Positions 1,628-21,249 of a stretch of DNA of 43,582 bases are shown here, piece by piece (within the stretch, counting starts at the first letter, position 1; every line of letters begins with the position of its first letter). Under the pieces are notes generated by a model, which saw only the letters and a program-made list of their open reading frames with translations, had not been told where the DNA came from and did not search any database. The stretch comes from Sphingomonadales bacterium (GTDB taxonomy: Bacteria > Pseudomonadota > Alphaproteobacteria > Sphingomonadales > JAKSBY01): positions 1 through 43,582 of the forward strand of contig JAKSBY010000290.1 in assembly GCA_022360855.1 (NCBI GenBank). Reading direction: 5' to 3'. The translations under genes were made by a program, and so were the position numbers.

Positions 1628-1700
1628 AAAGCGGCGAAGGAGCGTGTCGGCATGCGGGCGGCTGACGTCGGGTCCATTGCCCGCGGATTCCCTAAGCACC

Positions 1701-1739
1701 AAAATAGGGGCTTAGGCACAGCGGGCTAAGCCGCCTTTT
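1701..1739 (-). terminator. Possible intrinsic terminator downstream of the giant RTX gene
   Basis: Inverted repeat GGCTTAG (1709-1715) / CTAAGCC (1726-1732), followed on the minus strand by a short T-rich tail (TATTTT), about 100 bp after the RTX stop codon. Confidence 0.4.
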
Positions 1740-1839
1740 CACGTCCAAAAAATCGGGGGACCGCTGGGGGCCAGCTTAATGAGTTGAGCCGGACGGAAAC
1801 GGGCCGACGGGACCGGCGAATGCCCGCCGCTCTCCGAGT

Positions 1840-7800: not shown

Positions 7801-10800
7801 CTCGTTGATATCGTTGACCGTGATCGCGTAATTCTGTTCGACCCACGCGCCTGCGACGTCTGTCACGCGAATGATCACCGAATGGCTGTCCGCGATTTCA
7901 TGGTTCAGACTGGCGCCGGCCTTAACCGTCACCTGCCCCGAATTCGGGTCGATTTGGAAAAAGCCGGATGGATCGGATTGCAGCGAGAATGTCAGGGAAT
8001 CGCCAATGTCGGGATCGCTTGCCGTGGCCGTGCCAACGACGGTGCCGGCCGCGGAGTTTTCGTCGACCGCGCCCGAGAAGGCCAGCGATTCCGGCGTATC
8101 GTTGGTATTCGCAACATTGATCGAGAAGGTCGTCGTTGCCGAACTCTTGCCGTCCGAAGCGAAGACTTTCAGGTCGACCGTTCCGACATCGTCGTTAAGC
8201 GGGGTGCCGGAAAAGGTCTGCGTGGCGGTGTTGAACTGCAGCCAGAAATTGACCGGTATCGGCGCGCCGCTTGCGAAAGTCGCCGAATAGCTTAGCGGGT
8301 CGTTCTCCGGATCGCTGAATGTAGCGGCTGGCACCTGGAAGGAAAAAAGGCTGTCTTCGGTCGCAGCCTGGTTGGCGATGGTCTGCGCGACGACCGGGGG
8401 CTCGTTGGTAACGCTCGAAAGCGGATCCCGGGTCTGGTCGGCAAACTGCAGAAACTCGATATTGTCGAGGGTGTCCTCACCATCGTCACCGTCCGTTAAA
8501 TCGGTATCGGCGACCGTGAAGAGGCCCGTGACCTCGTCGATGGAGATCGCATAGCCTGCGAAAAGCCCGTTATAGACCGCGGTGTCGGAACCGTCTCCGC
8601 CGTCAATCGTGTCGTTGCCGCCACGTCCCTCGAGCAGGTTGTCGCCGGTATTGCCGGTAATCGTGTCGTTCTGATCGCTGCCGACCACATTCTCGACGCT
8701 GGTCAACGTATCGGTGCCGCGGCCCATGGCCGTCCCGGCTGTCAGATCGATTGTCCAGGCGACCGCGCTGTTGGAGGCGTCGACGGTATCCGAGCCGGTG
8801 CCGCCATCGATGGAATCGTTTGCTGAAGACGTCTCCTCGAGATCGAAGCGGTCGTCCCCACCGCCGCCGATCAAGGTGTCGGTCCCGTCGCCGCCGATCA
8901 GCTCGTCGGCGCCGTCGCCTCCGGTCAGCGTGTCGTTGCCGCCGAAGCCAAAAATCCGGTGGCCACCGGTCAAGCCGGCGGCAGACAGCTGGTCGTCTCC
9001 CGGCGTGCCGACCAGAATGACCCGATCCTCGTAGAGTTCGTTGACTTGCCAGGATGCGGCAATCGCCGCATCAACCTCGGCCTGGGTCGGTTGCACGGCC
9101 GATACGACCGGGAGTATCCCGAAGGCCACATCGATGTCGAATCGACTCAGGCTGTGGGTCGGCGTTATCACGCGGCGGACACGATTGTCGGCCTCGTCGA
9201 ACCAGCCCGAGACCGTGACGCTGGCGCCGCCGCCGGCCACGTCGATCTTCAGGTCTTGCCCGACCCGGGAGAAGGTCAGGTCTTCAAATGCGACCGAGTT
9301 ATCGAAGACGATATCATCGAGCCCGCCATCGTTGGTGAGGGTGTCGTTGCCCGAGGTCGACGTGAACAGGTAGGTGTCGTCTCCCTTGCCGCCATCTATG
9401 GTGTCATCGCCCGGGCCGCCGTCGAGGATGTCGCCGGCTGCACCGCCTATCAGCTGATCATCGCCGGCTCCACCGACCAACACATCCGGATCACGGTTGG
9501 ACAGCAGGCTCGCCATATGGGTATCGTCCGTTACCCAGCCCGTTGTCGGCAAAGGCGAGCCAAACGCATTGCCCGTCGAGTCCAACGTGAAAAATACACC
9601 TGGCCCAAGGGTCTGCACCAAATCGAAGTCAACCACCCTGCCTTCTGCGGGGTTGGCATCGCCACTAACCTCGGCAGCCGTCAGCGTCCGGTCCCAAATC
9701 TTGGCGCGGTAATACTCGCCGCTGAAGCTCTCAGCAGGATCGTAGCCGCCTCCGTAGCTATCCTGGTCTTGCCCCAAAACCAGTATGGTAGAACCGGACA
9801 GGCTATAACCAGTACGGAAACCGGTCGTTTCGTAAACAAGCTGGCCGTTGTCATAGATTTTCAGATCGCCGGCCGTGTTATCCCAGCTGACGGTCAGTCT
9901 GTGCAGTTCGCCGGCGGTTAACGATACCCCGGTGGAAATTTGAGTGCCACCAATCGTGACATTCAAGTTGTCGGGCTGAGAAATCAGAATCTCGTCCGGA
10001 TTTGAGGGACTCGCCAATGACAGAATGGCCCGGTCACCGCTCATACTGGCCGGCACAATTTCCATCTCAACGGTGAATGCCGCGCTCGGTGAAGCGGGAA
10101 GAGTTAGAGTTTTCAGGCCGGACAAGTTGGACGTACCGTCCATCGCCATGCCGAAAGCCAGCGTCGAGGTTTCCTCGTATTCGGCGATGAGCAGATCGTC
10201 GCCAGCGCCGCCAATGAGCTGATCTGAGCCGATTCCCCCGACCAGCTTATCGTCACCTGCGCCGCCGTCGAGGACGTCGTTCCCGGCCCCGCCTTCGAGC
10301 ACTTCGACGTTGGCAGATGTTCCGCCTTCGCCGCCTGAGATGTTATCGTCGCCCTCACCGCCCAGAAGCGTATCCGTGCCGGCATCGCCGATAAGAACAT
10401 CGTCGCCGAAGCTGCCGGTCAGAGCATCGTCGCCTTTGTTGCCTTTCAGGACGTTGTCGTTGGAGTCGCCCGTAATAGTATCGGCAGAATCGGAGCCCGT
10501 AACATTCTCGATGCCCGAAAGCACATCGCCCGCCGCGTCGCCGCCAGCCTGGGCGCCCGCCGAGCTCAGATTGACCGTAATACCGGAATCCGAGCCATTG
10601 TAGATCGCCGTATCAATGCCCGTGCCGCCGGTCAGCGTGTCGGCGCCTGCTCCGCCCGATAGCTTGTCGTCGCCGTCGCCGCCGTCGAGCGTGTCATCGC
10701 CGGCAAGTCCGGAGAGCGTATCGTCGCCGTCGCCGCCGTTGAGCGTATCGGCCGCCGCGCCGCCGACCAGAAAATCGTCGTTCGCGGTTCCTGCGCCGGA

Positions 10801-13800
10801 AATCTCGAGGTCTGACAAAGTGGCAAAGGTGCCGTCGAAAAATTGCAGGGTTTCGATGGCGTCGTCCGTATTGACCGTGCCGTCGGCATTGAAAAAGTCG
10901 GTGACGGTGATGGTGCCGCCGTTGTTGTCGACTTCGATCAGAAGGTTGTCGGTGCTGGCTGGCTGCGAGAGCGTCAGATCCGACAGGCCGATGCCGTCGC
11001 CGAAGGAAATCGTGTCGTCGCCGCCGGAGCCGCCAAGGTCGGTGATTGTTGTGCCGATCACTGCCTTGCCACTTATCCCTGCCTTGGAAAAGCCAGGCTC
11101 CAGTACTTCTTCCGGCAGATTGATGCCGTTGAGCGTCATTGCCGTCGTCGTCTGCCAGATATAATTGTCGACCACCGTGGCGCGTGTAAACGTGTCGATG
11201 ATGGTCAGCGTATTGAGAAACTGGCCGGGGATGATGCTCTCACTCTCGAATCGGACATCGAATCGGCTCTGGTCGATGTGGCCGGCGGCGTTGATGACGA
11301 CTACGCTTTCGATGGCCTGGTTCTTGTCGACAATGACGTCGGCGCCGTCGCCGCGGTTGAACACGTAGGTATCGTCGCCGAGAGCGCCGTAAATGGTGTC
11401 GTTCCCGGCGCCGCCTTCGAATTCGTTGTCTCCGAAATTACCGTGCAGTGTATCGGCGTGGGCCGAGCCGATAATGCCCTCGACCTCGATGATTGAATCG
11501 CCCGCCGCATCGCCGCCGGAACCTGCCGTACCGTCCAAATCGACGGTGACGGCCGACATCGAGTCGGCGTAGGAAACCATGTCGAAGCCTGCGCCGCCGA
11601 CGATGATGTCGGCCCCGGCGCCGCCCTCCAGCGTGTCGTTACCGGCTCCGCCCAAAAGAACGTCGGCTCCGGCCCCGCCTTTGAGCGTGTCCTGGCCGGA
11701 ATGGCCGCTCAGGATGTCGTCGCCACCAAGACCATCCAGCGTATCGTCACCGCCGTTGCCGGCGAGCCAATCCTTGCCGGCGCCGCCGTTTACGGTGTCA
11801 TCGCCGTCGGTGCCGGTACCCCAGATATCGATCTGGGTTGCGGCCAGCGTGCCCGTGTTGAAAAAGACGAACTCCTCGATGGGGGCGCCCGAGGTATTGG
11901 CCGTTGGCGAGTTGAACCAATGCTTGAGCGTGATGGTGTCGGTGAGACCGGCGAAGGTGACTCCGTCGGCGCCCGACGGCGCGATGCCGAGGACGAGATC
12001 GTCGCCCTGGCGCTCCATATGGATATCGTTGATGTCGATACCGATGCCGAACTCGATCGTATCGTTGCCCGAATCCGCCGTATAGTTGTTGGGGTCTGCC
12101 GGGTTGTGCCGGTAAAGCATGCCGTTGGAGCGGTCGTAGCGCATGCGGCCGAGCCACATGGTGCCGTCGTAGACCACTTCGCCCGACGTCGTCTTGACCT
12201 GGACGCCGTCCAGCATATAGCCGGTCTGGAAGCCCTGGCCCGAGATCCAGACGACATCCCACTCGTTGGTGAGCGCGTCGATGACCGTATCGGCCCCGTC
12301 GCCGCGCTCGAAACGGATCACGTCGTCGCCGGCGCCGGTGGTGATCATGTCGTTGCCGAGCCCGCCGGCCAACAGGTCGTTGCCCGTCTCGCCGGTAAGC
12401 TCGTCGTCGCCGCGGCCGCCGGTGACGGTGTCGTTGCCGGAGCCGCCGGAAACCACGTCCTCGCCATCGGCGCCCAGGACGATGTCATGGCCAAGCCCGC
12501 CCGAGACCAGGTCGTCGCCGGCACTGCCCGATCCGAAATCGTTACCGAGCAGCAGGCTGATTTCGTCGTCGCCGTCGCCGCCGACGATGAAGTCGTTGCC
12601 GACGGTGCCGATCAGGACGTCGTTGCCCGGCGTGCCGACGGTAAAGGAATCGAAATGGCCGATCTGGATTTCCTGCCCGTCGGCGAAGCGCAGTCTCTCG
12701 ATCCGGTTGAAGGGGTCGAACCAGTTGGTGAGCGTTATTTCATCGCCGGTTGTCGCGCCCGTGGAATCGATGATCTGCAAGACAAGGTCGGGCGAGCTCG
12801 CCGCAGGGCGCACAAACTGTATATTCTCCAGACCGATGCCCGGGCCCAGCACCAGCACGTCCTGGCCGCCGGCCGCGTGGCCGTTCTCCACCAAAAGACC
12901 GCCGCCGCGCCAGTTGCGCTCGATAATGCCGCCGTCGACGGCGGTCAGATAGGTGTCGATATCGACCGTCGGGATTTCCGCTTCGGGCGCCGGGCCTTCC
13001 TCGGTGGCCGTGTCCTTGCCGTCGCCTGTGCGCAGGATGTACTGGTCGTCGCCGGCGCCGCCATAGAGCGTGTCGCCGACCGGGTTGCCTTGCGCGTCGA
13101 CGCCGTCCGTGCCGCCGGCGAGTATGTCGCCGCCACCGCCGCCATGGAGCGTGTCGTCGCCGGCGCCGCCTTCCAGCCAGTCGGAGCCGCCGCGGCCCCA
13201 GAGCGTGTCGTCGCCGGCGCCGCCATCGAGATAGTTGCCGTCCGAGGTGCCGTGCAGCTTGTCGGCATGGAGCGTGTCGTCGCCGTCGCCGCCGAAGATC
13301 CAGTCGGCCTTGGCGCCGCCGGTGATGGTGTCGTCGCCGGCATCGCCGTAAAGGTCGTTGCCGAGATCGCCGCCGGTGATCACGTCGTCGCCATCGCCGC
13401 CATGCACCTCGGCCGCCACCTCGACATCGAACGGCAGGGCCGCCACGGTACCCCATCCATAGGTGCCGGTCGTGGGCGGGAAGGAATCGGTGATCGCCAA
13501 ATGCTGACCGGAGACGGATTCGTAAGTGGTGCTGCCGGTACCCTCGTCAAAGGCGAAATCAACCACGAGCGCCGAGGCGAATGCGCCGGACGCGACCTGG
13601 TCGGGCGTCAGGGCCTGATTGTACCACTGGGCCGAGAAGTATTTGCCGGCAAACGACTGGTTGGGATCGAAGGCGCCGCCCTCGACGTCCTGCTCCTGGC
13701 CGATATTGATCGTGCCATTGTTTTGGATCGCGGCTCCCGGGCGATAGACGCCGTCATAGACCAGGACGCCGAAGTCCCAGATCTTCAGATCGCCGGTGGC

Positions 13801-16800
13801 CGAGTCCCACGACGCGACGATCTGGTGGCGCTCGCCGTCGAGAAGATTGTAGGGCACGTTGATGTAGTGCTGGCTGGCATCCGGGCCGATGGCGATGCGG
13901 ATGTGATCGTCCTGCGGGTTGAAATAGGCCTCGTTGCTGGTGTGGCCGTCCAGGGCGTAGCTGAACAGCGAATGCTCGCCGACCAAGCCGTCGTTAAACT
14001 CGAAGTCGAGCGCGAAAGTATACTGTGTCGTCGGCGCGTTGGTGATGTTGTCGAGCTGCACATGCACCTGGCCGTCCATCCGGAGGTAAGTCTCGGTGAG
14101 CGTTGTGCTGAGCGCTTCGCCGTTGATGGTCAGCCCGGTGGCGTCGACGATACGGTCCACGCCGCCCACGACGGACGGGTCGGCCGCGTAAGCCAGCGAG
14201 ATCTCGTCATTGCCGGCGGTCCCCTCGATCAGGTCCTTGGCCGTGGAATCGATGGTATCGCGGACGACCTGGGTCAGCCCGTTCTTGTCGGTAAGGATTA
14301 CCGCCCGCTCGTTGCCGACCCGGGTGAAGGTGGCGGTGGACGCGGCGGCCGCGTCGTTGTCGCCCAGCCAATGTTCGAAGCCGCCATACCAGTCCCCCTC
14401 GTGGCGCTTCAATAGGCCGAGTTCCACGGCGCGCTGCAACGTAATCACCCAGCCGGCGGTAAACGCCGAATCCGGCTCGGCCGCGATCAGTGCGTTGATC
14501 GAGGCGGAATTCTGCAGATAGAGGGCGTAGTCGCTTGCCGTCGTCATGTTGCCGAGCAGCGTCTCCATCTCGAAGCCGCCCGGCCCGCCGGCCATCTCGA
14601 GCGTGTTGTAGAAGGCGCGCTTGGCATAAACGTCGCCGCCGGCGATCTTCATGCTGTCCAGGCCCAAAAAGGCGCCGTAGTTGATCAGGTCGCCTGCCGC
14701 GCCCTCCTGGTCGCCGTCGAAAAGCTTGTCCAGGTCCGATTTGCCGAAGTCTGACGTCACCTCGTCACGATAGGTGAAGTCGGATTTGCGCATGCCAAAG
14801 GCGCCGCCCTGCACGTCAAAACCGTTGAGAAGATCGCCGCCGACGGCCGCCAGAACGCCGTTATAGGCATCCGCCGCCGACTGCGCGAGGCCACGCGCCG
14901 CATCTTCGCTGCCCCCCTTGCGCGCGAACACATTGCCGACGGCAAACTCGCCGGTCACCGGATTCCACATCACCTCCGCCGACGACCGCGGTGTTCCGCC
15001 GAAAGCGGAGCCGATCAGCCCGCCGAGGATCTGGCCGAGGAAAGCGCCAACGAGAATTCCAACCGGGCCGCCAAAGGCGGAAAGCGCAAATGACTGAAAG
15101 AGGGTGGCTGAGCCACCAGCGGCGATTGCGGCTGTGCCTGCCGTGGCGGCGCTGGATATTATGCCCGCGGCAGCGATACTTCCGAGGCTGGATCCGATCG
15201 CGCTGCCGACCTGCCCACCGATCGTGTCGAACGAAATGACCTCCGAGGCCAGCCTGGAGCCAACATAGGACGCGACGATGTTCCCAAATTGGAGATCTCC
15301 AATGTCGGCAAAGATATCAGTGCCGGGTGTGGTTATGTTCGCCAAGATCTGGTCGATGACCGCGCCACCGGTCGAGTTTAGAACCTCCCCGACGACGCCG
15401 TTGATTCCCAACGCGTCGAGAAGCTCGGCGGTCAAGAACGCGGACACCGCGCCGGTGCCCGCCGATTTGAGGTTGTTTAGAAGCTCGACATCAATGTCGC
15501 TAAGCGCCAGTTGAGTGTGCGTTTGGGTGCCGCGGCCTGAGCCAAAGATCTGAATATCGAGCAATTCGCCAAGGTTGTGGGCCAGTGTTGACAAACCGGC
15601 GGTCGCACCGATTTGCGCAAATAGATTGTCTCCGGCCAGCCTTCGGCCGACTGTCGAGCCAATGGCAGAACCGGCCTGATTGAATGTGATTGGTGTGCCT
15701 GAGACGCTGATAGAGGTCTCGTCCGGGCCGCCGGTAGTGGACTTGATTGTTACGGCCAAATCACCGTCATGATGTGTCTCGAAAAAGGTATCGACCGGCC
15801 CTCCCTCAGTCGAAGCTTCCCAGGTTGCCGTCCGCACGACTTCGGCGTCCTCGCCTTCGCCGACGATCGCCTGGAATCCAATCAGATTGCCGTTCGCATC
15901 ATTGATGGAGACGATGCGGCCTTCTTGAGCAGCGAAGGCGCGGAATTTGTCGGATCGCCAAGTGGTTGGTATAAGAGACTGCTCTGCTTCTGGAACCGTC
16001 GCTAGTATGTGGTCCCGCGGTGCGACGCTTGGATACCAACCGGAAAGGTTAGCTTTTGTAAGGTCCGGTAGGCTCTCCGGTATTCCATCTACAGTCTCTC
16101 TGTTGAAAAGAGTGATGGCATCACGTAGGTCTTCCGGCGGCGTTGTCAGATCGACATCGAATTCGATCACAGAACCACCATCCCACATGGCGACGCCGTT
16201 GATATGTGGCACACCGTTTTCGTCGCGGAAGAAGCTGGATGAACGAAGAGCGCCAATCGGCTCCTCATTTTCGCTGAAACCAGGTGTTTCCAGTACAGTT
16301 CTTGCGATCAATGCGCCTGACTGATCGATAGCACTTTCGACAACTTGACTTCCGCCCTGCAGAGAGCTCGATTTTTCTCGTGTAAACGTAGTAGAATCGT
16401 CGAAAATCCAAGAATAAGGGGATACTGGCGTTTGTCCGGTATTGTTCTCAGTTCGATTGAGCGCATCACCAATATTCTTGATCGCGTGTTCGTCTGTGTT
16501 GATGCCCGGAATTAGCAGGCTTGGATTCTCTAGTTCAACTATGCTGGAAAAGCGTGTTATCTCCCCTGGAAGAGACTGAACGCGCGGAACCGGGTCGTTC
16601 GCTCCAACAATCACCGAATGTATCGGAGGCAGCGACCCGCCAACCACATAGTCCTCGATTAAGGCTACGCGAGCGTCAAGTGGCTCAAGCGGATCGCCTA
16701 CCGGATCGAAATTAAACCCAAATGAATTGACTCCTTCAACTCCGGAAACAAGAGCGTTGACATTACGTTCAGGATCAATGGCGAAGTGCGCCAACAAGAA

Positions 16801-17280
16801 CGTACTAAGGTGAAAGCCCCCAGAATGGCCAACGAGTTGTACGGCGGTGAATTCGTTTTGGGTGCCCTGAAGCTGCTGGCTGTCGACCAGATGCTCCGCG
16901 AACGCGACAAAATCATCCGCTTGAAACTTATTGTACCCAAATACATTGGTCGCTATCTGAAACTGGCCTAACTCGTAAAACCCCGTTACGCCAGCCGACG
17001 CCAAGATCATTTGGCCGGTTTGGGTGTCTCTCAAGTAAACACCTTGGTAGCCAGAGTCGGGAACGGCGTTGCCGAAGAACTCCGTGGCTCCCATAACTAC
17101 TTCATAGCGGTCAACAAAAGCGGCTGCTTCGATTTCTGTGAAGCCCGTGTTCGGTAGACTGGTAAGAGCATCGATCTTTTCTGTACGTGTCATGCCACTC
17201 GTCAAATTTGCGTAAGCGGCATTGGAAAGCTCGACGCGACCTATATATGAGGTGCCCAAATCATGAGGCTGTGACATCAC
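1840..17280 (-). CDS. Giant T1SS-secreted RTX protein (5146 aa): lipase-like N-terminus, glycine-zipper region, RTX repeat blocks, 2 pentraxin domains, cadherin/Ig-like repeats, FrpC SPM-like module, C-terminal secretion signal
   Basis: Single open frame with dozens of GGxGxDxLx nonapeptides, no Sec signal peptide, a C-terminal FIQAMAAF-type T1SS signal and adjacent hlyB/hlyD/hlyC. Start is GTG 17280 or ATG 17277, overlapping the upstream stop (GTGATG), with GGAG just upstream. Confidence 0.93.
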   Translation of the reverse strand: MMSQPHDLGTSYIGRVELSNAAYANLTSGMTRTEKIDALTSLPNTGFTEIEAAAFVDRYEVVMGATEFFGNAVPDSGYQGVYLRDTQTGQMILASAGVTGFYELGQFQIATNVFGYNKFQADDFVAFAEHLVDSQQLQGTQNEFTAVQLVGHSGGFHLSTFLLAHFAIDPERNVNALVSGVEGVNSFGFNFDPVGDPLEPLDARVALIEDYVVGGSLPPIHSVIVGANDPVPRVQSLPGEITRFSSIVELENPSLLIPGINTDEHAIKNIGDALNRTENNTGQTPVSPYSWIFDDSTTFTREKSSSLQGGSQVVESAIDQSGALIARTVLETPGFSENEEPIGALRSSSFFRDENGVPHINGVAMWDGGSVIEFDVDLTTPPEDLRDAITLFNRETVDGIPESLPDLTKANLSGWYPSVAPRDHILATVPEAEQSLIPTTWRSDKFRAFAAQEGRIVSINDANGNLIGFQAIVGEGEDAEVVRTATWEASTEGGPVDTFFETHHDGDLAVTIKSTTGGPDETSISVSGTPITFNQAGSAIGSTVGRRLAGDNLFAQIGATAGLSTLAHNLGELLDIQIFGSGRGTQTHTQLALSDIDVELLNNLKSAGTGAVSAFLTAELLDALGINGVVGEVLNSTGGAVIDQILANITTPGTDIFADIGDLQFGNIVASYVGSRLASEVISFDTIGGQVGSAIGSSLGSIAAAGIISSAATAGTAAIAAGGSATLFQSFALSAFGGPVGILVGAFLGQILGGLIGSAFGGTPRSSAEVMWNPVTGEFAVGNVFARKGGSEDAARGLAQSAADAYNGVLAAVGGDLLNGFDVQGGAFGMRKSDFTYRDEVTSDFGKSDLDKLFDGDQEGAAGDLINYGAFLGLDSMKIAGGDVYAKRAFYNTLEMAGGPGGFEMETLLGNMTTASDYALYLQNSASINALIAAEPDSAFTAGWVITLQRAVELGLLKRHEGDWYGGFEHWLGDNDAAAASTATFTRVGNERAVILTDKNGLTQVVRDTIDSTAKDLIEGTAGNDEISLAYAADPSVVGGVDRIVDATGLTINGEALSTTLTETYLRMDGQVHVQLDNITNAPTTQYTFALDFEFNDGLVGEHSLFSYALDGHTSNEAYFNPQDDHIRIAIGPDASQHYINVPYNLLDGERHQIVASWDSATGDLKIWDFGVLVYDGVYRPGAAIQNNGTINIGQEQDVEGGAFDPNQSFAGKYFSAQWYNQALTPDQVASGAFASALVVDFAFDEGTGSTTYESVSGQHLAITDSFPPTTGTYGWGTVAALPFDVEVAAEVHGGDGDDVITGGDLGNDLYGDAGDDTITGGAKADWIFGGDGDDTLHADKLHGTSDGNYLDGGAGDDTLWGRGGSDWLEGGAGDDTLHGGGGGDILAGGTDGVDAQGNPVGDTLYGGAGDDQYILRTGDGKDTATEEGPAPEAEIPTVDIDTYLTAVDGGIIERNWRGGGLLVENGHAAGGQDVLVLGPGIGLENIQFVRPAASSPDLVLQIIDSTGATTGDEITLTNWFDPFNRIERLRFADGQEIQIGHFDSFTVGTPGNDVLIGTVGNDFIVGGDGDDEISLLLGNDFGSGSAGDDLVSGGLGHDIVLGADGEDVVSGGSGNDTVTGGRGDDELTGETGNDLLAGGLGNDMITTGAGDDVIRFERGDGADTVIDALTNEWDVVWISGQGFQTGYMLDGVQVKTTSGEVVYDGTMWLGRMRYDRSNGMLYRHNPADPNNYTADSGNDTIEFGIGIDINDIHMERQGDDLVLGIAPSGADGVTFAGLTDTITLKHWFNSPTANTSGAPIEEFVFFNTGTLAATQIDIWGTGTDGDDTVNGGAGKDWLAGNGGDDTLDGLGGDDILSGHSGQDTLKGGAGADVLLGGAGNDTLEGGAGADIIVGGAGFDMVSYADSMSAVTVDLDGTAGSGGDAAGDSIIEVEGIIGSAHADTLHGNFGDNEFEGGAGNDTIYGALGDDTYVFNRGDGADVIVDKNQAIESVVVINAAGHIDQSRFDVRFESESIIPGQFLNTLTIIDTFTRATVVDNYIWQTTTAMTLNGINLPEEVLEPGFSKAGISGKAVIGTTITDLGGSGGDDTISFGDGIGLSDLTLSQPASTDNLLIEVDNNGGTITVTDFFNADGTVNTDDAIETLQFFDGTFATLSDLEISGAGTANDDFLVGGAAADTLNGGDGDDTLSGLAGDDTLDGGDGDDKLSGGAGADTLTGGTGIDTAIYNGSDSGITVNLSSAGAQAGGDAAGDVLSGIENVTGSDSADTITGDSNDNVLKGNKGDDALTGSFGDDVLIGDAGTDTLLGGEGDDNISGGEGGTSANVEVLEGGAGNDVLDGGAGDDKLVGGIGSDQLIGGAGDDLLIAEYEETSTLAFGMAMDGTSNLSGLKTLTLPASPSAAFTVEMEIVPASMSGDRAILSLASPSNPDEILISQPDNLNVTIGGTQISTGVSLTAGELHRLTVSWDNTAGDLKIYDNGQLVYETTGFRTGYSLSGSTILVLGQDQDSYGGGYDPAESFSGEYYRAKIWDRTLTAAEVSGDANPAEGRVVDFDLVQTLGPGVFFTLDSTGNAFGSPLPTTGWVTDDTHMASLLSNRDPDVLVGGAGDDQLIGGAAGDILDGGPGDDTIDGGKGDDTYLFTSTSGNDTLTNDGGLDDIVFDNSVAFEDLTFSRVGQDLKIDVAGGGASVTVSGWFDEADNRVRRVITPTHSLSRFDIDVAFGILPVVSAVQPTQAEVDAAIAASWQVNELYEDRVILVGTPGDDQLSAAGLTGGHRIFGFGGNDTLTGGDGADELIGGDGTDTLIGGGGDDRFDLEETSSANDSIDGGTGSDTVDASNSAVAWTIDLTAGTAMGRGTDTLTSVENVVGSDQNDTITGNTGDNLLEGRGGNDTIDGGDGSDTAVYNGLFAGYAISIDEVTGLFTVADTDLTDGDDGEDTLDNIEFLQFADQTRDPLSSVTNEPPVVAQTIANQAATEDSLFSFQVPAATFSDPENDPLSYSATFASGAPIPVNFWLQFNTATQTFSGTPLNDDVGTVDLKVFASDGKSSATTTFSINVANTNDTPESLAFSGAVDENSAAGTVVGTATASDPDIGDSLTFSLQSDPSGFFQIDPNSGQVTVKAGASLNHEIADSHSVIIRVTDVAGAWVEQNYAITVNDINEAPSAITTSDTLIIGEHLASGGTVATFQVTDEDDITSAYGQHVWSVSGDNRFEVSAGVLKLKAGSSLDYEAGDTSIALTVTATDNNGTGFVFNQPITVTINDEIDVLNGGSGNDTLTGAQGVDHIFGNDGNDILSGLAGADLLEGGFGNDDLSGGDGADTLRGGAGDDTLNGNADNDVLEGGAGVDLLYGGGGDDNLQGGDGADTLMGQGQNDTLAGGAGDDILIGGAGADSLDGGTGLDTADYSASASAVTVDLAANTATGGDAQGDTFANIEKVIGTSGADSLTGGTIAETLDGGGGADTLTGGAGGDTLIGGAGNDTIYGGDGQDTLYGGDGDDTLHGEGDSDMIYGEAGNDHLFGGASPDTLMGGDGDDTLEAGTAGDHLYGEAGNDFMVGGAGADTYHAGLNTGQDVINDYDTTGSADQVAYGDNISYLNIWFERGNYDPVTKTFTRDDATGTELRASVLNTTSSVIILNMFDVAGNMQQHYSVELFIAGSMQSKTDVNIPALLSIMQGYGDMPTGVSEIPASIRTEVETAWDINDPPSIVLTTPGINPLDVRVAEDGSLELLFDVTDTGQIKTPDASLTVRAETSGTLFPSVINGEFVDDNTRRITLAPLAQISGSETFNVIVDDGGLETTLTLTVTVDAVADAPNLAVNDAAGNQGTAIALSITSSLADTDGSESLEIDIAGVPTGATLNKGVDQGGGLWRLSPADLTGLTITPVADNTGTDFDLTVTARATEASGGAPATSVETLNVSVNAPPSVDSFSGSVSEAAANGTYVGTVAASDPDFDETNLVDTSAWQYSTGTPTLPGWGPNNTNEIRWANVIGPDGTTITALETGQDGGTAQSGGGFWRTSDITIDPTKAYRYTIYFRKHDLNKHYLYFGPAQYQGAGANAYVENLSTGADTTNPYFITWSDDVQRNLLQNDRWYQVVGYVLPQGSTTGYDVSAQFGGVFDTVTGQKIANVVNYRWDSSLPDNVIAPRFFNYYDETEAGFTTYWAPPTVEEATLTYTLVDDAGGRFRIDAATGIVSVNDAAAINFEAATSHQIQVRVTDNGGFTSTQTYTVTVTDANEAPVLNTAISHALGAINEDNTSNGGTTIAAMLTNGAIDDPDYDDGGTEPEAIAVVAVDTANGSWEYRIGGGAWTAVGTVSSTSALLLGPNDSLRFKPNANWNGTVANGVTFKAWDQTSGAAGTRVDASSGGGGSAFSTATDTASVQVNAVNDAPVLSAGNVAQIPDINEDETGNGGVVVSTLLGSSSVSDVDGTPQKAIAVIGADNTNGHWEYNAGSGWVDFGGVSSSSARLLDSNDKVRFIPAANYSGTNSGITFRAWDQSVGSAGGTYNITATGGTSAFSTATAVRGITVNQVNDAPVLSATLYNFGGPTGIPDSVGVGHDVGSISATDVDTGTLGTKRYYFWNGSTISGTSSDGRFKINATTGLIEVNGALDFGSTAGGFYNYEVVVRDNFNGASHLSGYLQDTADVKIKIEEVNTAPVILGFKDQSNGTITSVTMDENPQFGAFVARVDGEDPDTGPNGDLTYSILSGNDGNAFSINSSTGEITINTGLDYETQTSYTLTVQATDGGNPSLSSTPHTLDINVVDVPEFEFLLDMDNLPNTGTIIGNGSNGLPVGYRYVGEIVPNGLGGTTTWTRRITNVAGDVEYLRMTKFSSFPWSFSVHESFYFDEATNELFVLTGFVPPLIIDLDGDGVELTPLATSTVAFDMDGDGDLDFTGWAGADDGFLALDRNGDGVINDASEISFVGDLPGARTDLEGIAAFDTNHDGVFDVGDERFGEFQVWQDANQDGVSQADELTSLADRGIASIDLTPVPTGETVTGSIDNVVVNTSHFTREDGTTGEVGDVALRFLRNELGADAGSPSSAEPATAIADETQSLDSFGFDTPLLVDDLLHGWRSPGLAAVGALSEIDIREARSAHVQEAMQSSELARFIQAMAAFEPQSASNLDQSQSQDVGENTFRFAAVNPLVERSI
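2200..2715 (-). other. FrpC-type self-processing-module (SPM)-like Ca2+-binding domain
   Basis: PLIIDLDGDGVE...FDMDGDG...TGWAGADDGFLALDRNGDGVIND..E...FDTNHDG...FQVWQDANQDGVSQADELTSLADRGIASIDL aligns by eye with the Neisseria FrpC SPM as recalled (DPLALDLDGDGIE...GWVSADDGLLVRDLNGNG...LRVWQDLNQDGISQANEL). Confidence 0.8.
3000..6190 (-). other. C-proximal stalk of cadherin and cadherin-like/Ig-like repeats, including two tandem ~150-aa paralogous repeats at about 3700-4590
   Basis: Repeated NDAP/NEAP linkers and LDYE/INFE and DxDxG motifs. Two copies of INED...AIAV...D..NG.WEY...W...G.VSS.SA.LL..ND..RF.P.AN..G....TF.AWDQ. Confidence 0.75.
7500..8405 (-). other. Dystroglycan-type cadherin-like (He_PIG/CADG) domain followed by two cadherin domains
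   Basis: NEPPVV...ATEDSLFSFQVPAATFSDPENDPLSYSA...WLQFNTATQTFSGTP, then VDENSAAGTVVG...DPD...LNHE and LDYE motifs. Confidence 0.8.
9530..10155 (-). other. Pentraxin/LamG-like domain 2 in the RTX protein
   Basis: HRLTVSWDNTAGDLKIYDNG...LVLGQDQDSYGGGYDPAESFSGEYYRAKIWDRTLT (GQDQD at 9774-9760). Boundaries are approximate. Confidence 0.8.
13490..14090 (-). other. Pentraxin/LamG-like domain 1 in the RTX protein
   Basis: LFSYA...HQIVASWDSATG.LKIW..G...INIGQEQDVEGGAFDPNQSFAG....QWYNQAL matches the pentraxin consensus (GQEQD at 13701-13687). Boundaries are approximate. Confidence 0.8.
14990..15690 (-). other. Hydrophobic Gly/Ala/Ser-rich (glycine-zipper) region resembling the membrane-inserting region of RTX toxins
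   Basis: GSAIGSTVG, GGQVGSAIGSSLGSIAAAG and GGPVGILVGAFLGQILGGLIGSAFGG are repeated GxxxG helices, N-terminal to the RTX repeats as in HlyA/CyaA-type proteins. Confidence 0.7.
16440..17277 (-). other. Alpha/beta-hydrolase (lipase/phospholipase-like) domain at the RTX N-terminus
   Basis: VQLVGHSGG nucleophile elbow (GHSGG at 16830-16816), preceded by GYQGVYLRDTQTGQMILASAG. Candidate acid GANDPVP (16594-16596) and base DEHAI (16486-16488) give a putative triad S153/D229/H265 in ORF-track numbering. Confidence 0.7.
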
Positions 17281-18056
17281 ACTTCTCCGCCAGAGTTAGG
17301 GGTCTCTGTCTGCTCGTTCGGCGCGAATGGTTGGATTAGCCAGTCGTTTGTTAGGCGCCCGTCTTCGTATGCCGATCTGCCGCAACTTTTTACTTCTTGC
17401 AGTTGCACCGGCAGATTACGTGAGAGGATTCCGTTCAGTCCTGTTGGCCAGAGCCTGAACTCATACGATGAGGAAATTGTTCGATCATCTGCCAGGGAAA
17501 AGATTCTGTAGCCAAGCTTCGTGACTCTTAAAAATGGCCTTTGAATAGTTCGAACATTCTCGATAGCGAAAGCCGAACTGAGTTCATAGGAAACTGATTT
17601 TTTAAGGCAATATTCGAAGGCTTTTTCTGGATGCGATTTGAAATCATCAAATGAGTTTCGTATCTCTTTGTCTCTACAGAATTCACTTTCAGCATCAACT
17701 GAACTATATCTGCTAATATAAGCTGTCTTGTTTGACAGCAGGGAATTCAAATACTCGTAATTTCGTTGATCGGGTAGAACCTCTAACGAAAGAACCTCCA
17801 CAAATCTGACAGCCCCTGATGACAAAACAGTCATGCACCGGAACGTGCACTCAGCTGGCAGATAGTCAAAGACAAGAACGGCGTCGGAACTAACGGAATC
17901 ATAGATGCGATCCCCGCTCTCATTTTTGCATTTGTAGTGGTAGTAAATTTGATTATGCGGATAGTCCCAATTTAGAAGCAGGAATAGCAGGAGAAGGTAT
18001 AACCACAGCCTCTTGCGGCTCCGGGCAGGCATTTCTTGTTTGGTAGGTTCCGCCAT
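17277..18056 (-). CDS. Low-GC, Cys-rich, N-terminally membrane-anchored or exported hypothetical protein; candidate immunity protein for the RTX lipase domain
   Basis: 259-aa ORF with a basic N-region followed by LWLYLLLLFLLL, and six cysteines. Its stop overlaps the RTX start. Hand count of 17581-17640 gives 21/60 G+C. Confidence 0.8.
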   Translation of the reverse strand: MAEPTKQEMPARSRKRLWLYLLLLFLLLNWDYPHNQIYYHYKCKNESGDRIYDSVSSDAVLVFDYLPAECTFRCMTVLSSGAVRFVEVLSLEVLPDQRNYEYLNSLLSNKTAYISRYSSVDAESEFCRDKEIRNSFDDFKSHPEKAFEYCLKKSVSYELSSAFAIENVRTIQRPFLRVTKLGYRIFSLADDRTISSSYEFRLWPTGLNGILSRNLPVQLQEVKSCGRSAYEDGRLTNDWLIQPFAPNEQTETPNSGGEV

Positions 18057-18127
18057 CGCCTACCGACGCCACCATTTTTGAGTGGATATCTGCGACGAAG
18101 ATGCTGATAAATCGATGTAGGCGTTAA

Positions 18128-18365
18128 CCCTTGCCCGCCAAAGCGGCGAAGGGTGGGCTCTGTGTCTTTCCCCCATGTTTCCCTCTCGTCCCCCAAATTC
18201 AGCTTCCCCGATCTGGCGCCGAGAGTGCCAGGCGGGTTGGGCCGGTTCGTTACCATGGCGGGTGCTTGGCCCACCAAAGCGGTGGAGTGAAGGTTCGAAC
18301 TTCGGGTATGTCAAAGGGCAATTTTGTGGCTTTTTCGTGCCGGTCGCGGGCCGGTCCGCGACCGG
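18128..18365 (-). promoter_or_regulatory. Leader/promoter region of the immunity-RTX operon, with two related hairpins and a long palindrome
   Basis: Minus-strand TTGACA at 18314-18309 with TTCACT 17 bp downstream. Hairpins on the + strand are CCACC-AAAGC-GGTGG (18271-18285) and CGCC-AAAGC-GGCG (18136-18148). A near-perfect 26-bp palindrome lies at 18340-18365. Confidence 0.5.
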
Positions 18366-18643
18366 GTGTGTTTTCGCTATGGTTGTAAAGGCTTAGGTGC
18401 ATTTTCTTCGCCTCTTTCACGCGCCCGATGTGCGCAATTGTCGCGGATTTTTGAGGGGCGATTTGGCGCGACCGTTCAAGAAGCGGAGCCGGACCTGTGG
18501 CGACTCGGAAGTCCAGGCGTGCAGATTCGCACGCGCCGGACTTGGATCGGGGACGGCCTCGGCCGCCACGCGACGCCTCGGCCGGCATCGGCGACTGACT
18601 ATGGGGACAAAGCGCCGAAAGGTGGCGGCGCGGCCGGGGCCGT

Positions 18644-19258
18644 CTAGGCGTCGACGCCTTTCAGGGTCAGGACGTCGCGTTTGCCGGTTGCCGGGTCGGT
18701 CTTGTGGAAGCGGAAGGTCTGGCCCTTGAAGGCGGTCTGCATGAGGTCGGCCAGCATCGCCTCGACCATTTTGTTGTCGGGCGTGGCGAAGGGGGCGATC
18801 AGGTCCACAAGCCACAGATTCCCTTGGGTTTTTCCCGCCTGCGCGCCGTCCGCGCCGCCATCGCCGCCGCCGAGCGTGTCCTGGAGATGGGCGACCCCGA
18901 GGCCGTCGGCGCGCCATTCGTCGGGCCGCAGGCGCCCGGCGCCGGCGTTCAGCTTGGCCTCCGCTTCGGGGCTGAGCCAGGCCCACAGCGCCAGGCCGAC
19001 CGGCGTCGTCTCGCCGTGGAACACGCGGTACTGCTCCAACAGCAAGGGCGGCATGACCAGCCATTCGAGGTCGGCCAGCGCGAAATGCTTATGGGTCGGC
19101 GATTGGGTAAGAAGCCAGACGATCTCGCCCAGCATATGGCTCACCGTCGGCCGCCTTTTGGCCGCCTCGTCGGTCTTTTTCGGGTCGAAGACCGGCGCGT
19201 CGGCCGCGCCCGATGCCGTGGCACCATCGGCGCCGTTTTGTGCTGTTTCTTTCGCCAT
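18644..19258 (-). CDS. hlyC: RTX toxin-activating lysine acyltransferase (HlyC/CyaC/RtxC family)
   Basis: LGEIVWLLTQSPTHKHF (SPxH catalytic motif), PPLLLEQYRVF, PVGLALWAWLS, DEW...GNLWLVDLIAPF. Confidence 0.92.
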   Translation of the reverse strand: MAKETAQNGADGATASGAADAPVFDPKKTDEAAKRRPTVSHMLGEIVWLLTQSPTHKHFALADLEWLVMPPLLLEQYRVFHGETTPVGLALWAWLSPEAEAKLNAGAGRLRPDEWRADGLGVAHLQDTLGGGDGGADGAQAGKTQGNLWLVDLIAPFATPDNKMVEAMLADLMQTAFKGQTFRFHKTDPATGKRDVLTLKGVDA

Positions 19259-19321
19259 GCCGTGCGACCCCCGTTTGTCGAGCTACCCGTAATTGGTGTG
19301 TGGCGCCCGGCTCGGCGCCGC

Positions 19322-19849
19322 CTAGCGGGCCGCGCCCGGCTCCGAGAACCGCGCCTCGAGGAGCGCGAGCGCCGGACCATAGTCCTGCCGCGCCGCGCGC
19401 TCAAGCCATTTGCGCGCCTTGCGGTCGCTTCGCTTGACCCCGCGGCCCTCCAGATAGAGCCGGCCGAGCGCATATTGCGCGGCGGCCAGCCCGGGGCGGG
19501 CGGGGCCGGTGGTGACCGGGATCACCCGGCCATAGGTCTCGCTGCCGACCGGCGGCGAATAGACATAGGTGGTGCCGCCGACCGTCTCCGCCGCCGCCCG
19601 GTACCAGGCGACGGCGCGGGCCGGGTCGGCGGCGATGCCGTCGCCGGTCTCGTGGGCCCGGGCGAGCTCGTATTGCGCGAGCTTGCTGCCGCCGCAGGCC
19701 TGCGTCTTCAGCTCGGCCAGGGCGCCCTTGTCGCCATGTCCGAGGCAAGCCGCCTGATTGCTCAAGCCCGTTGTACAGGCAGACAGCGCGAGCACGGCAA
19801 ACAGGCAACACACGACCCTGAACCACGAAACCGCATTCCCCGCATTCAT
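19322..19849 (-). CDS. Sel1-repeat lipoprotein
   Basis: Lipobox LALSAC and two Sel1 repeats (AQYELARAHETGDGIAADPARAVAWYRAAA; AQYALGRLYLEGRGVKRSDRKARKWLERAARQ). Starts 2 bp after the hlyD stop. Confidence 0.85.
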   Translation of the reverse strand: MNAGNAVSWFRVVCCLFAVLALSACTTGLSNQAACLGHGDKGALAELKTQACGGSKLAQYELARAHETGDGIAADPARAVAWYRAAAETVGGTTYVYSPPVGSETYGRVIPVTTGPARPGLAAAQYALGRLYLEGRGVKRSDRKARKWLERAARQDYGPALALLEARFSEPGAAR

Positions 19850-19851
19850 GT

Positions 19852-21249
19852 CTAGCGCTCCCTCAAAGACTCGTCCTTGTAGCGCAGCAAGGGCGAGAGG
19901 ATGAACTCGATCAGCCGGCGCTTGCCGGTTTTGATCTCGGCGGTTGCGACCATGCCGGGTGCGATGTTCACGTCCTTGTCGTTGACCGCAATCGTAGAGC
20001 GTTCAAGGCTGACACGCGCCTGGTAGACGAGACCGAGCTTCTCGTCGGCGATGGCGTCCTGCGACAAATCCTCGAGCGTGCCGGGGAGCGTGCCGTATTT
20101 GGTGAAGGGGAAGGCCTCGAGCTTGACCTCCACTTCGTCGCCTATATGGACGAAGCCGATGTCCTTGTTCAGCACCTGTGCCTCGACCACCAAATCGCCC
20201 TCGCCGGGCACGATGACCATCAATGGCTCGGCCGGCTGAACGATGCCGCCGATGGTGTGGATGGCGAGCTGCTGCACGGTACCGTCGACCGGTGCAACGA
20301 GCTGCTGCAGCACATTGCGCTGGGCCGCCTTCGTCAGCTCCTGGGTCTGCGCCATCGCTGCGGTCTCGGCCTCCGCCAGTTCCGACAACGCAGTGCCGCG
20401 GAACTCTTGCGTGGTCTGTTCGCTCTGCTGGTCGATGCCGCTGATCGCGGCCGTCATCCGCACGCGCTGCTCGGTCTGGATTTCGAGCTGCTTTTGACTG
20501 TCGATCAGACGTTCCAGCAATTCGAGATACAGGAGCCGGGGCGACAGGCCCTTTTCGGTCAGCTCCTTGCGCGCCGCCACCTGTTCCTCGATCAGCGGCA
20601 GGGTCTTTTTGAGCCGATCGATTTCCTGGTCGACCGCGGCCAGATCGGCCTCCCGCTCGGCGCGCTGCTGGGCAAGCGAGCCCAGGGCCGCCTCATATTC
20701 GCGGATCTGGCTGTCGATCAGGCGCTCTTCCATGGCGACAATCGCCGGGTCGGCGTCGGCAGGTGGGTCGAATGCGTGGGCGCCGGTCTCGACGTAGGCC
20801 AGCAGTGCATTCGCCCTGGCCGACGTCATCCGCGACATCAGGAGTGCCGCCTCGACCTGCGCGACATCGGCGCCGGAAACGGTGGGGTCGAGCTCGATCA
20901 GCACGTCGCCGGCCGCGACACGTTGTCCATCTGTTACTTTGATTGCGCGAACGACGCCGATCTCCAAAGGCTGGATTATCTTGACCCGCTCTTTCGGGAT
21001 GATGCGACCCTGCGCGGTAGCCACCACGTCGACATGTCCGAAATAGGACCACAACATAGCGGCGACGAAAAACGCTATGATCAGCCACAGCGTCGTTCGG
21101 CCGACGGGCGAGGCCGGCTTTTCCAGAATCTCCAACGCTGCCGGCAGAAAGTCGACTTCTTCATATTTCTTGGCGCTCTTACGGCGCTCGGATTCGAGCC
21201 GCCAGGACTCCCGCCAAACGTCCAGGTGGCTGCGCATGCCCTCAAACAT
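19852..21249 (-). CDS. hlyD: T1SS membrane fusion protein (HlyD family)
   Basis: FLPAALEILEKP, a single TM segment, VKIIQPLEIGVVRAIKVTDGQRV, a coiled coil, KLEAFPFTKYG, AEIKTGKRRLIEFILSPL. The probable start is ATG 21249 overlapping the hlyB stop; the ORF track extends to 21279. Confidence 0.95.
   Translation of the reverse strand: MFEGMRSHLDVWRESWRLESERRKSAKKYEEVDFLPAALEILEKPASPVGRTTLWLIIAFFVAAMLWSYFGHVDVVATAQGRIIPKERVKIIQPLEIGVVRAIKVTDGQRVAAGDVLIELDPTVSGADVAQVEAALLMSRMTSARANALLAYVETGAHAFDPPADADPAIVAMEERLIDSQIREYEAALGSLAQQRAEREADLAAVDQEIDRLKKTLPLIEEQVAARKELTEKGLSPRLLYLELLERLIDSQKQLEIQTEQRVRMTAAISGIDQQSEQTTQEFRGTALSELAEAETAAMAQTQELTKAAQRNVLQQLVAPVDGTVQQLAIHTIGGIVQPAEPLMVIVPGEGDLVVEAQVLNKDIGFVHIGDEVEVKLEAFPFTKYGTLPGTLEDLSQDAIADEKLGLVYQARVSLERSTIAVNDKDVNIAPGMVATAEIKTGKRRLIEFILSPLLRYKDESLRER

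Follow-up and report, generated by a model that had tools for sequence, protein, structure and literature searches.

A two-part cassette exchanged at the head of giant RTX genes in Sphingomonadales, a candidate toxin/immunity pair of reversed polarity

A contig of 43,582 nucleotides (nt) from a Sphingomonadales bacterium (JAKSBY010000290.1; this whole stretch is called the window below) carries on its minus strand a repeats-in-toxin (RTX) gene for a giant protein of 5146 amino acids (aa; 1840..17280) and, directly upstream of it, a 259-aa open reading frame (ORF; 17277..18056) whose product is referred to as P0001. The small ORF and the beginning of the giant gene are both poor in G+C. This raises the question of whether the two pieces form one unit and, if they do, what such a unit contributes to a protein exported by a type I secretion system (T1SS). 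An earlier reading of the bare letters (the original prediction) had proposed that a lipase and its immunity protein were recombined into the locus together. We show here that a two-part cassette, made of the small ORF and the N-terminal coding part of the giant gene, is swapped as a whole at a constant position within a conserved T1SS/HlyC/RTX locus, and that its two parts co-vary largely independently of the similarity of the conserved module that follows them.

The compositional signal was assessed over the whole window. All four hand counts of G+C that had drawn attention to the region were exact (21/60 at 17581-17640 and 26/60 at 16381-16440, against 42/60 at 2341-2400 and 47/60 at 13141-13200). 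In sliding windows of 600 nt, the GC content falls to 0.425-0.52 over 16201-18000, compared with ~0.61 for the whole stretch. A one-segment likelihood fit over 10000-22000 placed a low-GC block at 15880..18119, with a GC content of 0.491 versus 0.639 outside and a log-likelihood gain of 83 nats. This block is the lowest 2240-nt window in the 43.6 kb (mean 0.612, standard deviation 0.031), the next lowest non-overlapping one having a GC content of 0.570. It holds the 259-aa ORF, a leader of ~60 nt and approximately the first 467 codons of the giant gene, so that the segmentation confirms low GC over both the upstream gene and the start of the RTX gene.

The GC content at third codon positions (GC3) had been expected to step up inside the RTX gene; a rise is indeed present, its shape being that of a ramp and not of a cliff. 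Read in frame, the 259-aa ORF has a GC3 of 0.33-0.56; the giant gene starts at 0.44-0.63 (codons 1-550) and climbs gradually to 0.59-0.78 (codons 550-850) and 0.80-0.93 (codons 800-1850). A second, shorter patch of low GC3 lies at codons ~4650-4850 (2700-3330; 0.45-0.63 versus ~0.8 around it), which indicates that the giant gene is mosaic in more than one place. This patch corresponds to the end of a cadherin-like repeat plus ~100 residues missing from the relative P0025, whose alignment resumes at residue 4853.

The junction between the two genes is as tight as was claimed: the sequence GTGATG is present at 17280-17275, the TGA stop of the small ORF (17279-17277) and the ATG start of the giant gene (17277-17275) overlap by one base, and a GGAG motif stands 7 nt upstream of that ATG. 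Contigs from another sample (X3) cover 15766-17039, 17030-17782 and 17820-18214, and a run from a separate study (X4) supplied contigs, 95-99% alike, that span 15427-16016 and 17243-18400. Both edges of the block and the gene junction are thus bridged, which argues against a mis-join, and the low-GC block is not an assembly chimera.

The block ends at codon ~467, where homology to the rest of the family starts, and therefore represents the part of the locus that is not common to the relatives. BLASTP homology to four of them (P0020, P0022, P0023 and P0025) starts at residues 405-531. A phmmer search with giant-protein residues 1-600 against 1.84 billion representatives gave five matches (P0006-P0010), all of them on residues 452-599 and none in 1-450, and these led to a conserved family module at residues ~450-1010 (14251..15936; alignments A2 and A3), whose hidden Markov model (HMM) matches the window protein at 454-1015. 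The module measures ~500 residues and consists of a beta-rich linker, a Gly/Ala/Ser-rich hydrophobic region with peaks at ~702-762 and a conserved segment bearing lysines at 788-999, after which the RTX repeats begin. We detected no homology of the module to known RTX toxin domains in Pfam or, with its profile, to PDB chains. By analogy, we propose that it may form a membrane-inserting, acylated core.

The exchange can be seen in the nearest relative, G001, which is the one further genome in the window's family. Here the flanks are conserved (HlyD 70% identity, Sel1 72% over 58 residues, HlyC 68%, module 50%), whereas the small ORF, encoding 194 aa with one hydrophobic helix, bears no likeness to P0001, and the N-terminal domain, which has an HExxH motif and a Hint domain, is unrelated to that of the window. 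A more distant locus, G811, keeps HlyD at 61%, HlyC at 53% and the module at 47% identity. Neither genome gave a match to P0001 or to giant-protein residues 1-450. Conserved flanks around an unrelated small ORF and N-terminal domain, a pattern repeated family-wide, lend good support to the proposal that the pair was recombined in as one unit.

We then considered the family as a whole. In an order-level sample, 21 of 401 genomes including the window's own had the module (20 of the 400 others), as did 4 of 401 genomes of a phylum sample and, with a single-sequence query, 3 of 401 genomes of a class sample. A word-index search returned 18 long proteins, the named sources being Sphingomonas, Altericroceibacterium and Aurantiacibacter. 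The analysis covered 25 module-bearing genes whose start lies in the fetched DNA, 24 of them with upstream DNA; G788 (contig ending in the gene), G016 (frame), the second piece of the G889 gene and G379 were left out. A same-strand upstream ORF of 84-532 aa abuts the start of 23 of the 24 genes, ending anywhere from 104 nt inside to 42 nt before it, and for the remaining gene (L064), whose N-terminal piece is in another frame, the ORF ends 26 nt ahead of that piece. The N-terminus is hydrophobic, of the signal-peptide, lipoprotein or anchor type, in 20 of the 24 upstream ORFs, and seven show a lipobox-like pattern. No Pfam match was obtained for 18 of 23 upstream ORFs; three have Sel1/TPR repeats (one above the cut-off) and one belongs to the FGE-sulfatase type.

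The N-terminal regions were compared in the same way. All-versus-all BLASTP of 25 regions yielded 14 similar pairs out of 300, three of which are owed only to a common Hint domain. Pfam annotation of 26 regions recovered Hint-type domains in three (L012, L019 and L047), Lipase_3 in one (G811) and nothing in 21. The Hint domain is of the pretoxin type and lies between the N-terminal domain and the module in these three loci; it also occurs in P0009, and the window protein does not have it. By simple pattern, the first 400 residues contain HExxH in 6 and HSxG in 5 of the 24 genes with upstream DNA.

The two parts of the cassette change together. Only 5 of 276 pairs of upstream ORFs are alike (E ≤ 1e-3), and four of these five join loci with similar N-terminal regions. 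Three loci (L064, L065 and L066) have one cassette type, yet their modules rank only 4th to 20th to one another, whereas the tandem genes of G866 have mutual best or second-best modules and different cassettes. Cassette type is therefore often decoupled from module similarity, and the co-variation is not just shared descent of the whole locus. Lower GC is likewise a family trait: with "rest" meaning the fetched part of each gene only, 22 of 25 genes have a lower GC3 in the N-terminal region than in the module plus rest (by at least 0.10 in 10 of them), with 1 gene equal and 2 higher; for the upstream ORF, GC3 is lower in 18 genes of 24, equal in 2 and higher in 4.

Some loci of the census have an unusual arrangement. 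In the G866 tandem (L059, G866:C2), the two module-bearing genes begin at 5650 and 8963 and differ in their N-terminal domain, and a separate small ORF lies upstream of each. The first gene is short, with an open frame of 884 aa, and the arrangement resembles an array of alternative cassettes, or else a copy that was displaced. One contig of G882 (L061) likewise holds two module-bearing genes. In L057 (G016:C1), a 495-aa N-terminal part (ORF 5607-7094) lies in another frame than the module (from 7002) with an overlap of 92 nt, reflecting a frameshift or a sequencing error; this part has a lipase-like start by eye and no Pfam match. In L012 (G234:C1), the small ORF and giant gene are closely preceded by a phage-integrase-like gene and an rve-type transposase (1637-4438), and GC3 is flat at ~0.5 throughout the locus, which would suit a mobile island that carries the gene in full.

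What the two parts encode was examined separately, beginning with residues 1-300 of the giant protein counted from the ATG (16378..17277), which look like a serine hydrolase of lipase type. This domain contains a GHSGG sequence with Ser152, followed by Asp228 and His264, that is, the Ser-Asp-His order with a GxSxG nucleophile elbow that characterizes class 3 lipases. In alignment A4, which unites the window, the second G866 giant and G1053, the residues H151, S152, D228 and H264 are invariant at 29-30% identity, and the first glycine of the elbow is found in the window's sequence only. BLASTP links the N-terminal domains of the window and the second G866 giant with an E-value of 2e-5. In a language-model search (Atlas), the neighbours were the Lipase_3, Phospholipase-like, Mbeg1 and cutinase clusters at 0.92-0.93, and the A4 profile weakly matched feruloyl esterase A, an enzyme with the class-3-lipase fold (E 0.018). 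The best PDB matches of this profile were engineered gp41 helix constructs (E 2.5e-7), which we rejected as repeated designed helices. The window domain does not reach the cut-off of Pfam Lipase_3 (PF01764); in another family member, G811, the N-terminal domain does so with 27.7 bits versus a cut-off of 22.

The subfamily is rare. With the A4 profile, it was found order-wide in 3 of 351 genomes, the window's own included, and only at the heads of giant genes; one further marginal match in a fourth genome spans 60 positions (E 3.1e-4). A class-wide search of 400 genomes with residues 1-449 gave three marginal matches (E 0.005-0.01), which is chance level, and the N-termini of the window and G234 showed no likeness. 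A word-index search with residues 1-450 returned no relatives among proteins shorter than 2830 aa, a blank that is uninformative because the fragment of a near-identical strain was missed as well. The residues that follow, ~301-447 (15937..16377), are unique, contain no cysteine and have no Pfam match; they separate the hydrolase domain from the conserved module.

Several results speak against an enzyme of this kind. Residues 1-329, 1-447 and 1-1000 were each left without a Pfam family at E-values up to 10, and so were the first 450 residues in NCBIfam at the same threshold. No PDB chain was found for these 450 residues by single sequence, and a single-sequence AlphaFold2 model of residues 1-459 was unusable, with a predicted local distance difference test (pLDDT) score of 36. 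The Atlas neighbours are a lead, not a test, as ten concordant matches are also given to a third of shuffled proteins. The label "lipase" of the original prediction holds as far as the GHSGG sequence, the invariant Ser, Asp and His, the lipase-like neighbours and the esterase match go, and falters on the Pfam and NCBIfam blanks and on the missing usable fold. On balance, a Ser-Asp-His hydrolase of the class-3-lipase kind is moderately supported by sequence features, and the enzyme is probably a lipase or phospholipase.

The other part of the cassette, P0001, had been described as membrane-anchored or exported and Cys-rich, and this description holds. A short cytoplasmic tail precedes a single hydrophobic anchor (residues 17-29), the motif WDYPHNQIYYHYKC stands right behind the anchor, and the protein contains six cysteines. 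Its only relatives among 5.8 billion clusters are three proteins of 99, 60 and 47% identity, all of which keep the hydrophobic anchor, WDYPHNQIYYHYKC and the six cysteines. This layout fits an inner-membrane anchor carrying a predicted disulfide-bonded periplasmic domain. The giant protein contains no cysteine in 5146 residues; a Cys-free giant beside a partner with six invariant cysteines therefore fits a T1SS substrate with a periplasmic partner.

In alignment A1, P0001 and its relative P0004 are identical at 50 of the first 50 residues (tail, anchor and WDYPHNQIYYHYKC), after which the identity drops abruptly to 20-30 positions per 50. The periplasmic part has therefore diversified and the anchor has not, which suggests either a recombination point within the small gene or fast change of the periplasmic part. 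No Pfam, NCBIfam or PDB match was obtained for P0001 (in Pfam, not even at an E-value of 10), an Atlas search gave unnamed clusters only, P0001 was not found in the 40 relatives' genomes searched, and neither BLASTP nor hhalign detected a likeness to P0013. An AlphaFold2 model from the four-row alignment was unusable (pLDDT 35). Among 1700 ORFs, the top non-self match of the P0001 profile was the upstream ORF of the second G866 giant, that is, of a gene with a related N-terminal domain, and the two proteins have several local motifs in common.

Other candidate relatives of P0001 were discarded. A 42-residue match in a Candidimonas record, from a scan of genome contigs, was taken as chance. A metagenome scan yielded two ~630-aa proteins (L003 1751-1984 and L004 7648-7881) with Asp_protease_2 and PDZ domains, in which a WDYPHNQI motif at the end of the protease domain accompanies 35-37% identity to P0001 residues 28-98; since only the WDYPHNQ motif is common and the scan was seeded on it, we consider this a chance resemblance or a shared strand motif. 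In a further run, X5, the flanks of the cassette were covered and most of the cassette was not, with no contig joining across, and no inference was drawn from this. Two X5 contigs match only ~50 nt of the window (17908-17970, the conserved P0001 motif) and are unlike it on both sides; they probably stem from a related but diverged small gene of a similar habitat.

The cassette is embedded in a minus-strand, operon-like row. Upstream lie genes for a T1SS ABC transporter with an N-terminal C39-like domain (21242..23404; Pfam ABC_membrane, ABC_tran and Peptidase_C39), a T1SS membrane fusion protein of the HlyD family (19852..21279; Pfam HlyD_3 and HlyD_D23), a Sel1-repeat lipoprotein-like protein (19322..19849; Pfam Sel1, E 1e-18) and a HlyC-family RTX-toxin-activating acyltransferase (18644..19258; PF02794, E 1.6e-28). 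A gap of 587 nt (18057..18643, GC 0.62) separates the HlyC gene from the 259-aa ORF, and the 5' edge of the cassette lies at its low-coordinate end, by the ORF. Downstream of the module, the remainder of the giant protein (1840..14250) comprises two pentaxin/laminin G (LamG)-like domains, RTX nonapeptide blocks, cadherin-like repeats and a C-terminal region that would carry the T1SS signal; the Pfam families detected in the protein are HemolysinCabind (E 9.6e-105 and 9.4e-57), Pentaxin, Laminin_G_3, Cadherin and HCBP_related. RTX repeats with adjacent genes for an ABC transporter and a membrane fusion protein, and an acyltransferase gene in the locus, are features of RTX toxins activated by HlyC.

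The Sel1 gene was also recovered by tblastn from G001, G1062 and G866. In three further loci, the ORF immediately ahead of the giant gene encodes a Sel1-type protein; the window's Sel1 gene might be either a fixed accessory or a one-time partner gene. A search for sigma-70-like promoters over 17200-19400 gave none. The gap between the HlyC gene and the small ORF contains an 11-pair GC-rich hairpin at 18340-18365, which is terminator-like on the plus strand only, with no plus-strand gene ending there. Directly downstream of the giant gene, an open-ended ORF on the minus strand (1-1554) encodes BNR/Asp-box and sortilin-Vps10-type repeats.

Our preferred interpretation, to which we assign a probability of roughly 0.55, is that the exchangeable two-part cassette makes this locus a polymorphic toxin/immunity system of reversed polarity, with the toxin at the N-terminus and the immunity gene upstream. 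The conserved scaffold with a hypervariable terminal domain and the co-varying small neighbour gene are those of polymorphic toxins; the order of the parts differs from the usual C-terminal toxin with a downstream immunity gene. A T1SS reads a C-terminal secretion signal, for which reason the reversed polarity would be required: a swappable toxin would sit at the other end, and the family shows exactly that layout. P0001 is accordingly proposed as the cognate inhibitor or immunity partner of the enzyme, a role that we only infer, from its position, export signal and co-variation.

In such a system, the Cys-free giant protein would leave the cell through the T1SS with its C-terminus first and fold on calcium, and its hydrophobic module, with acyl chains added by HlyC, would insert into the target membrane (both steps following PMC9558359 and PMC3034196 as far as their available text goes). 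The LamG and cadherin parts would bind the target surface. By analogy with CyaA and MARTX, the N-terminal enzyme would be cargo brought to or across the target membrane, and the Hint domains of some relatives might cut such cargo loose. In the producer and its kin, P0001 would bind to the enzyme in the periplasm and neutralise it. The variation is of arms-race style, and we therefore favour immunity in contests with other bacteria over shielding of the producer only.

A number of observations weigh against this interpretation. To our knowledge, the HlyC-activated RTX toxins described so far hit eukaryotic cells and have no immunity genes. Co-oriented neighbour ORFs are common in any operon. 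Four of the 24 upstream ORFs have no export signal, three of these four being one family, and an upstream protein of the FGE-sulfatase type is an odd immunity candidate. In G379, the start of the gene falls within the module, and both the variable domain and a neighbouring small ORF are missing. The homology between P0001 and the G866 upstream ORF is not significant (hmmsearch E 0.41; hhalign E 0.026, probability 1.9%), and the upstream ORF of G1053, the third member of the N-terminal group, shows no detectable likeness to P0001.

If the upstream protein is bound up with the enzyme, it need not act as immunity towards other bacteria. It might provide self-protection only, in the style of a serralysin inhibitor, guarding the periplasm of the producer against an N-terminus that lingers there during or after T1SS export, with the enzyme folding early or leaking; the giant protein would then be a secreted or surface enzyme-adhesin or an anti-eukaryotic toxin. 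An exported partner tightly coupled to the enzyme-bearing end would suit this role, and the cadherin and LamG domains would suit an adhesin. The RTX protease operons aprX-inh-aprDEF, with their protease inhibitor gene, offer a precedent (available part of PMC3034196), and eukaryotic membranes are the classical target of HlyC-type toxins (available part of PMC9558359). We nevertheless consider this explanation unlikely. From self-protection, one would expect a stable housekeeping inhibitor, whereas the cassettes are diverse, co-vary, have lower GC and move independently of the scaffold, as arms-race pairs do. Moreover, a purely periplasmic leak leaves three loci, whose upstream ORF has no export signal, unexplained, and P0001 does not match the Pfam Inh family. 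The same export-less loci are awkward for the idea that the upstream protein is a helper needed by its N-terminal domain, such as a membrane-anchored foldase, a chaperone or a docking/retention factor, as this helper would have to be reinvented for each domain type. Lipase-specific foldases and adhesin retention systems provide the comparison here, and giant RTX adhesins keep their N-terminus at the cell envelope. Such a role would suit a protein that is membrane-anchored, has a periplasmic domain and is coupled with an N-terminal domain alongside which it varies; no LapG/LapD-type or foldase family was found among the scanned window ORFs, and we regard a helper as improbable.

Finally, the two parts might have no functional pairing at all, the block being a foreign or fast-evolving 5' gene end with a hitch-hiking ORF, or a metagenome mis-join. 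The genome assembly has 805 contigs and 5.5% contamination, P0001 is a near-orphan with three relatives, and the second low-GC3 patch could reflect general mosaicism. Against this, the bridging of the edges and junction by independent contigs from a different study largely refutes an assembly artefact, the reading frame continues through the block edge, and the two-part layout recurs in isolate-grade genomes of 1-10 contigs. The 1-nt stop/start overlap and the invariance of the six cysteines in relatives at 47-60% identity also speak for a pairing, and we judge its absence very improbable.

Extending the polymorphic toxin/immunity interpretation from this locus to the order is more tentative. 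HlyC-dependent RTX giants of the order may be type-I-secreted polymorphic toxins of reversed polarity, in which an acylated, membrane-inserting scaffold common to them would deliver swappable N-terminal effectors, lipase-like, HExxH-bearing or of other kinds, into neighbouring bacteria, and each effector would be accompanied by an own upstream immunity gene with a mostly periplasmic product; the window block might then be a freshly exchanged lipase/immunity cassette. In known polymorphic toxins, the swappable toxin is C-terminal and secretion follows type V, VI, VII or related routes. If the toxin/immunity function holds, T1SS/RTX proteins would join the carriers of exchangeable toxin/immunity cassettes, and the long-unexplained RTX bacteriocins would gain a testable mechanism. 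There would also be new enzyme/inhibitor pairs to draw on, as most of the N-terminal domains and nearly all partners lack a Pfam family. For annotation, the first 300-650 codons of these genes and the preceding gene should be treated as one unit. In the literature searched, which leaves most subscription journals outside and makes a prior description possible, we came across no account of T1SS proteins with polymorphic cassettes at the N-terminus.

Among known systems, the original prediction had pointed to the Tle-type lipases of type VI secretion (T6SS). As in the Tle/Tli pairs known to us, a GxSxG hydrolase is paired here with a small periplasm-facing protein. However, no Tle/Tli family match and no T6SS component was found among the scanned window ORFs (not every ORF was scanned), and T1SS genes are present instead, so that delivery would be by the T1SS and the T6SS tie was wrong. 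The prediction is thus partly supported: its core, a unit recombined in as one, was right, and its functional labels are plausible but unproven.

In other RTX systems, the closest parallels concern individual parts of the locus. The Inh inhibitor of serralysin-type proteases is located in the periplasm. These proteases are T1SS enzymes with an N-terminal catalytic domain and a neighbouring gene for an exported inhibitor (PMC3034196, available part); the protein families differ from those of the window, with P0001 outside Pfam Inh, and the pair studied here varies between genomes. The family I.3 RTX lipases of Pseudomonas and Serratia are Cys-free, are exported by a T1SS and likewise have an N-terminal serine hydrolase followed by RTX repeats; according to the available text of the same source, they measure 476-617 residues and need no further gene product, in contrast to the 5146 residues and coupled partner found here. 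We set the window protein apart from them without direct sequence comparison, on the strength of its missing Pfam or NCBIfam lipase match and missing PDB chain by single sequence. The rhizobial RTX bacteriocins, such as RzcA of 439 kDa, are giant alphaproteobacterial RTX proteins too, and antibacterial activity is theirs; the available part of PMC3034196 describes no variable N-terminal domain or immunity gene for them, a distinction drawn by description, and states that their mechanism "remains to be characterized".

CyaA of Bordetella and the MARTX toxins resemble the window protein in carrying enzymatic cargo on a hydrophobic, acyltransferase-dependent RTX translocator encoded in a T1SS operon (PMC9558359, available part), and in having a self-cleaving domain by the cargo in some members, namely Hint here and a cysteine protease domain in MARTX. 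Neither cargo nor module is related to theirs in sequence. They act on animal cells and are not known to have a partner or immunity gene, whereas the cargo described here is swapped among relatives along with its partner gene. This exchange is the trait of the polymorphic toxins, including CdiA-CT/CdiI, Rhs and MafB, with which the locus has in common a conserved scaffold, a hypervariable enzymatic end domain, a co-varying small neighbour, lower-GC cassettes and, in some members, a pretoxin-type Hint beside the variable domain (PMC3482391, available part). In all classical cases, the polarity is the reverse of the N-terminal domain and upstream partner seen here, and the scaffold here is a T1SS-exported RTX protein with a HlyC acyltransferase; in its available part, the survey by Zhang et al. 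(2012; PMC3482391) names type I secretion only as the route of large RTX toxins and not as a polymorphic-toxin carrier. The layout of the locus thus combines features of polymorphic toxins, effector-carrying RTX toxins, RTX lipases and the serralysin-inhibitor pair.

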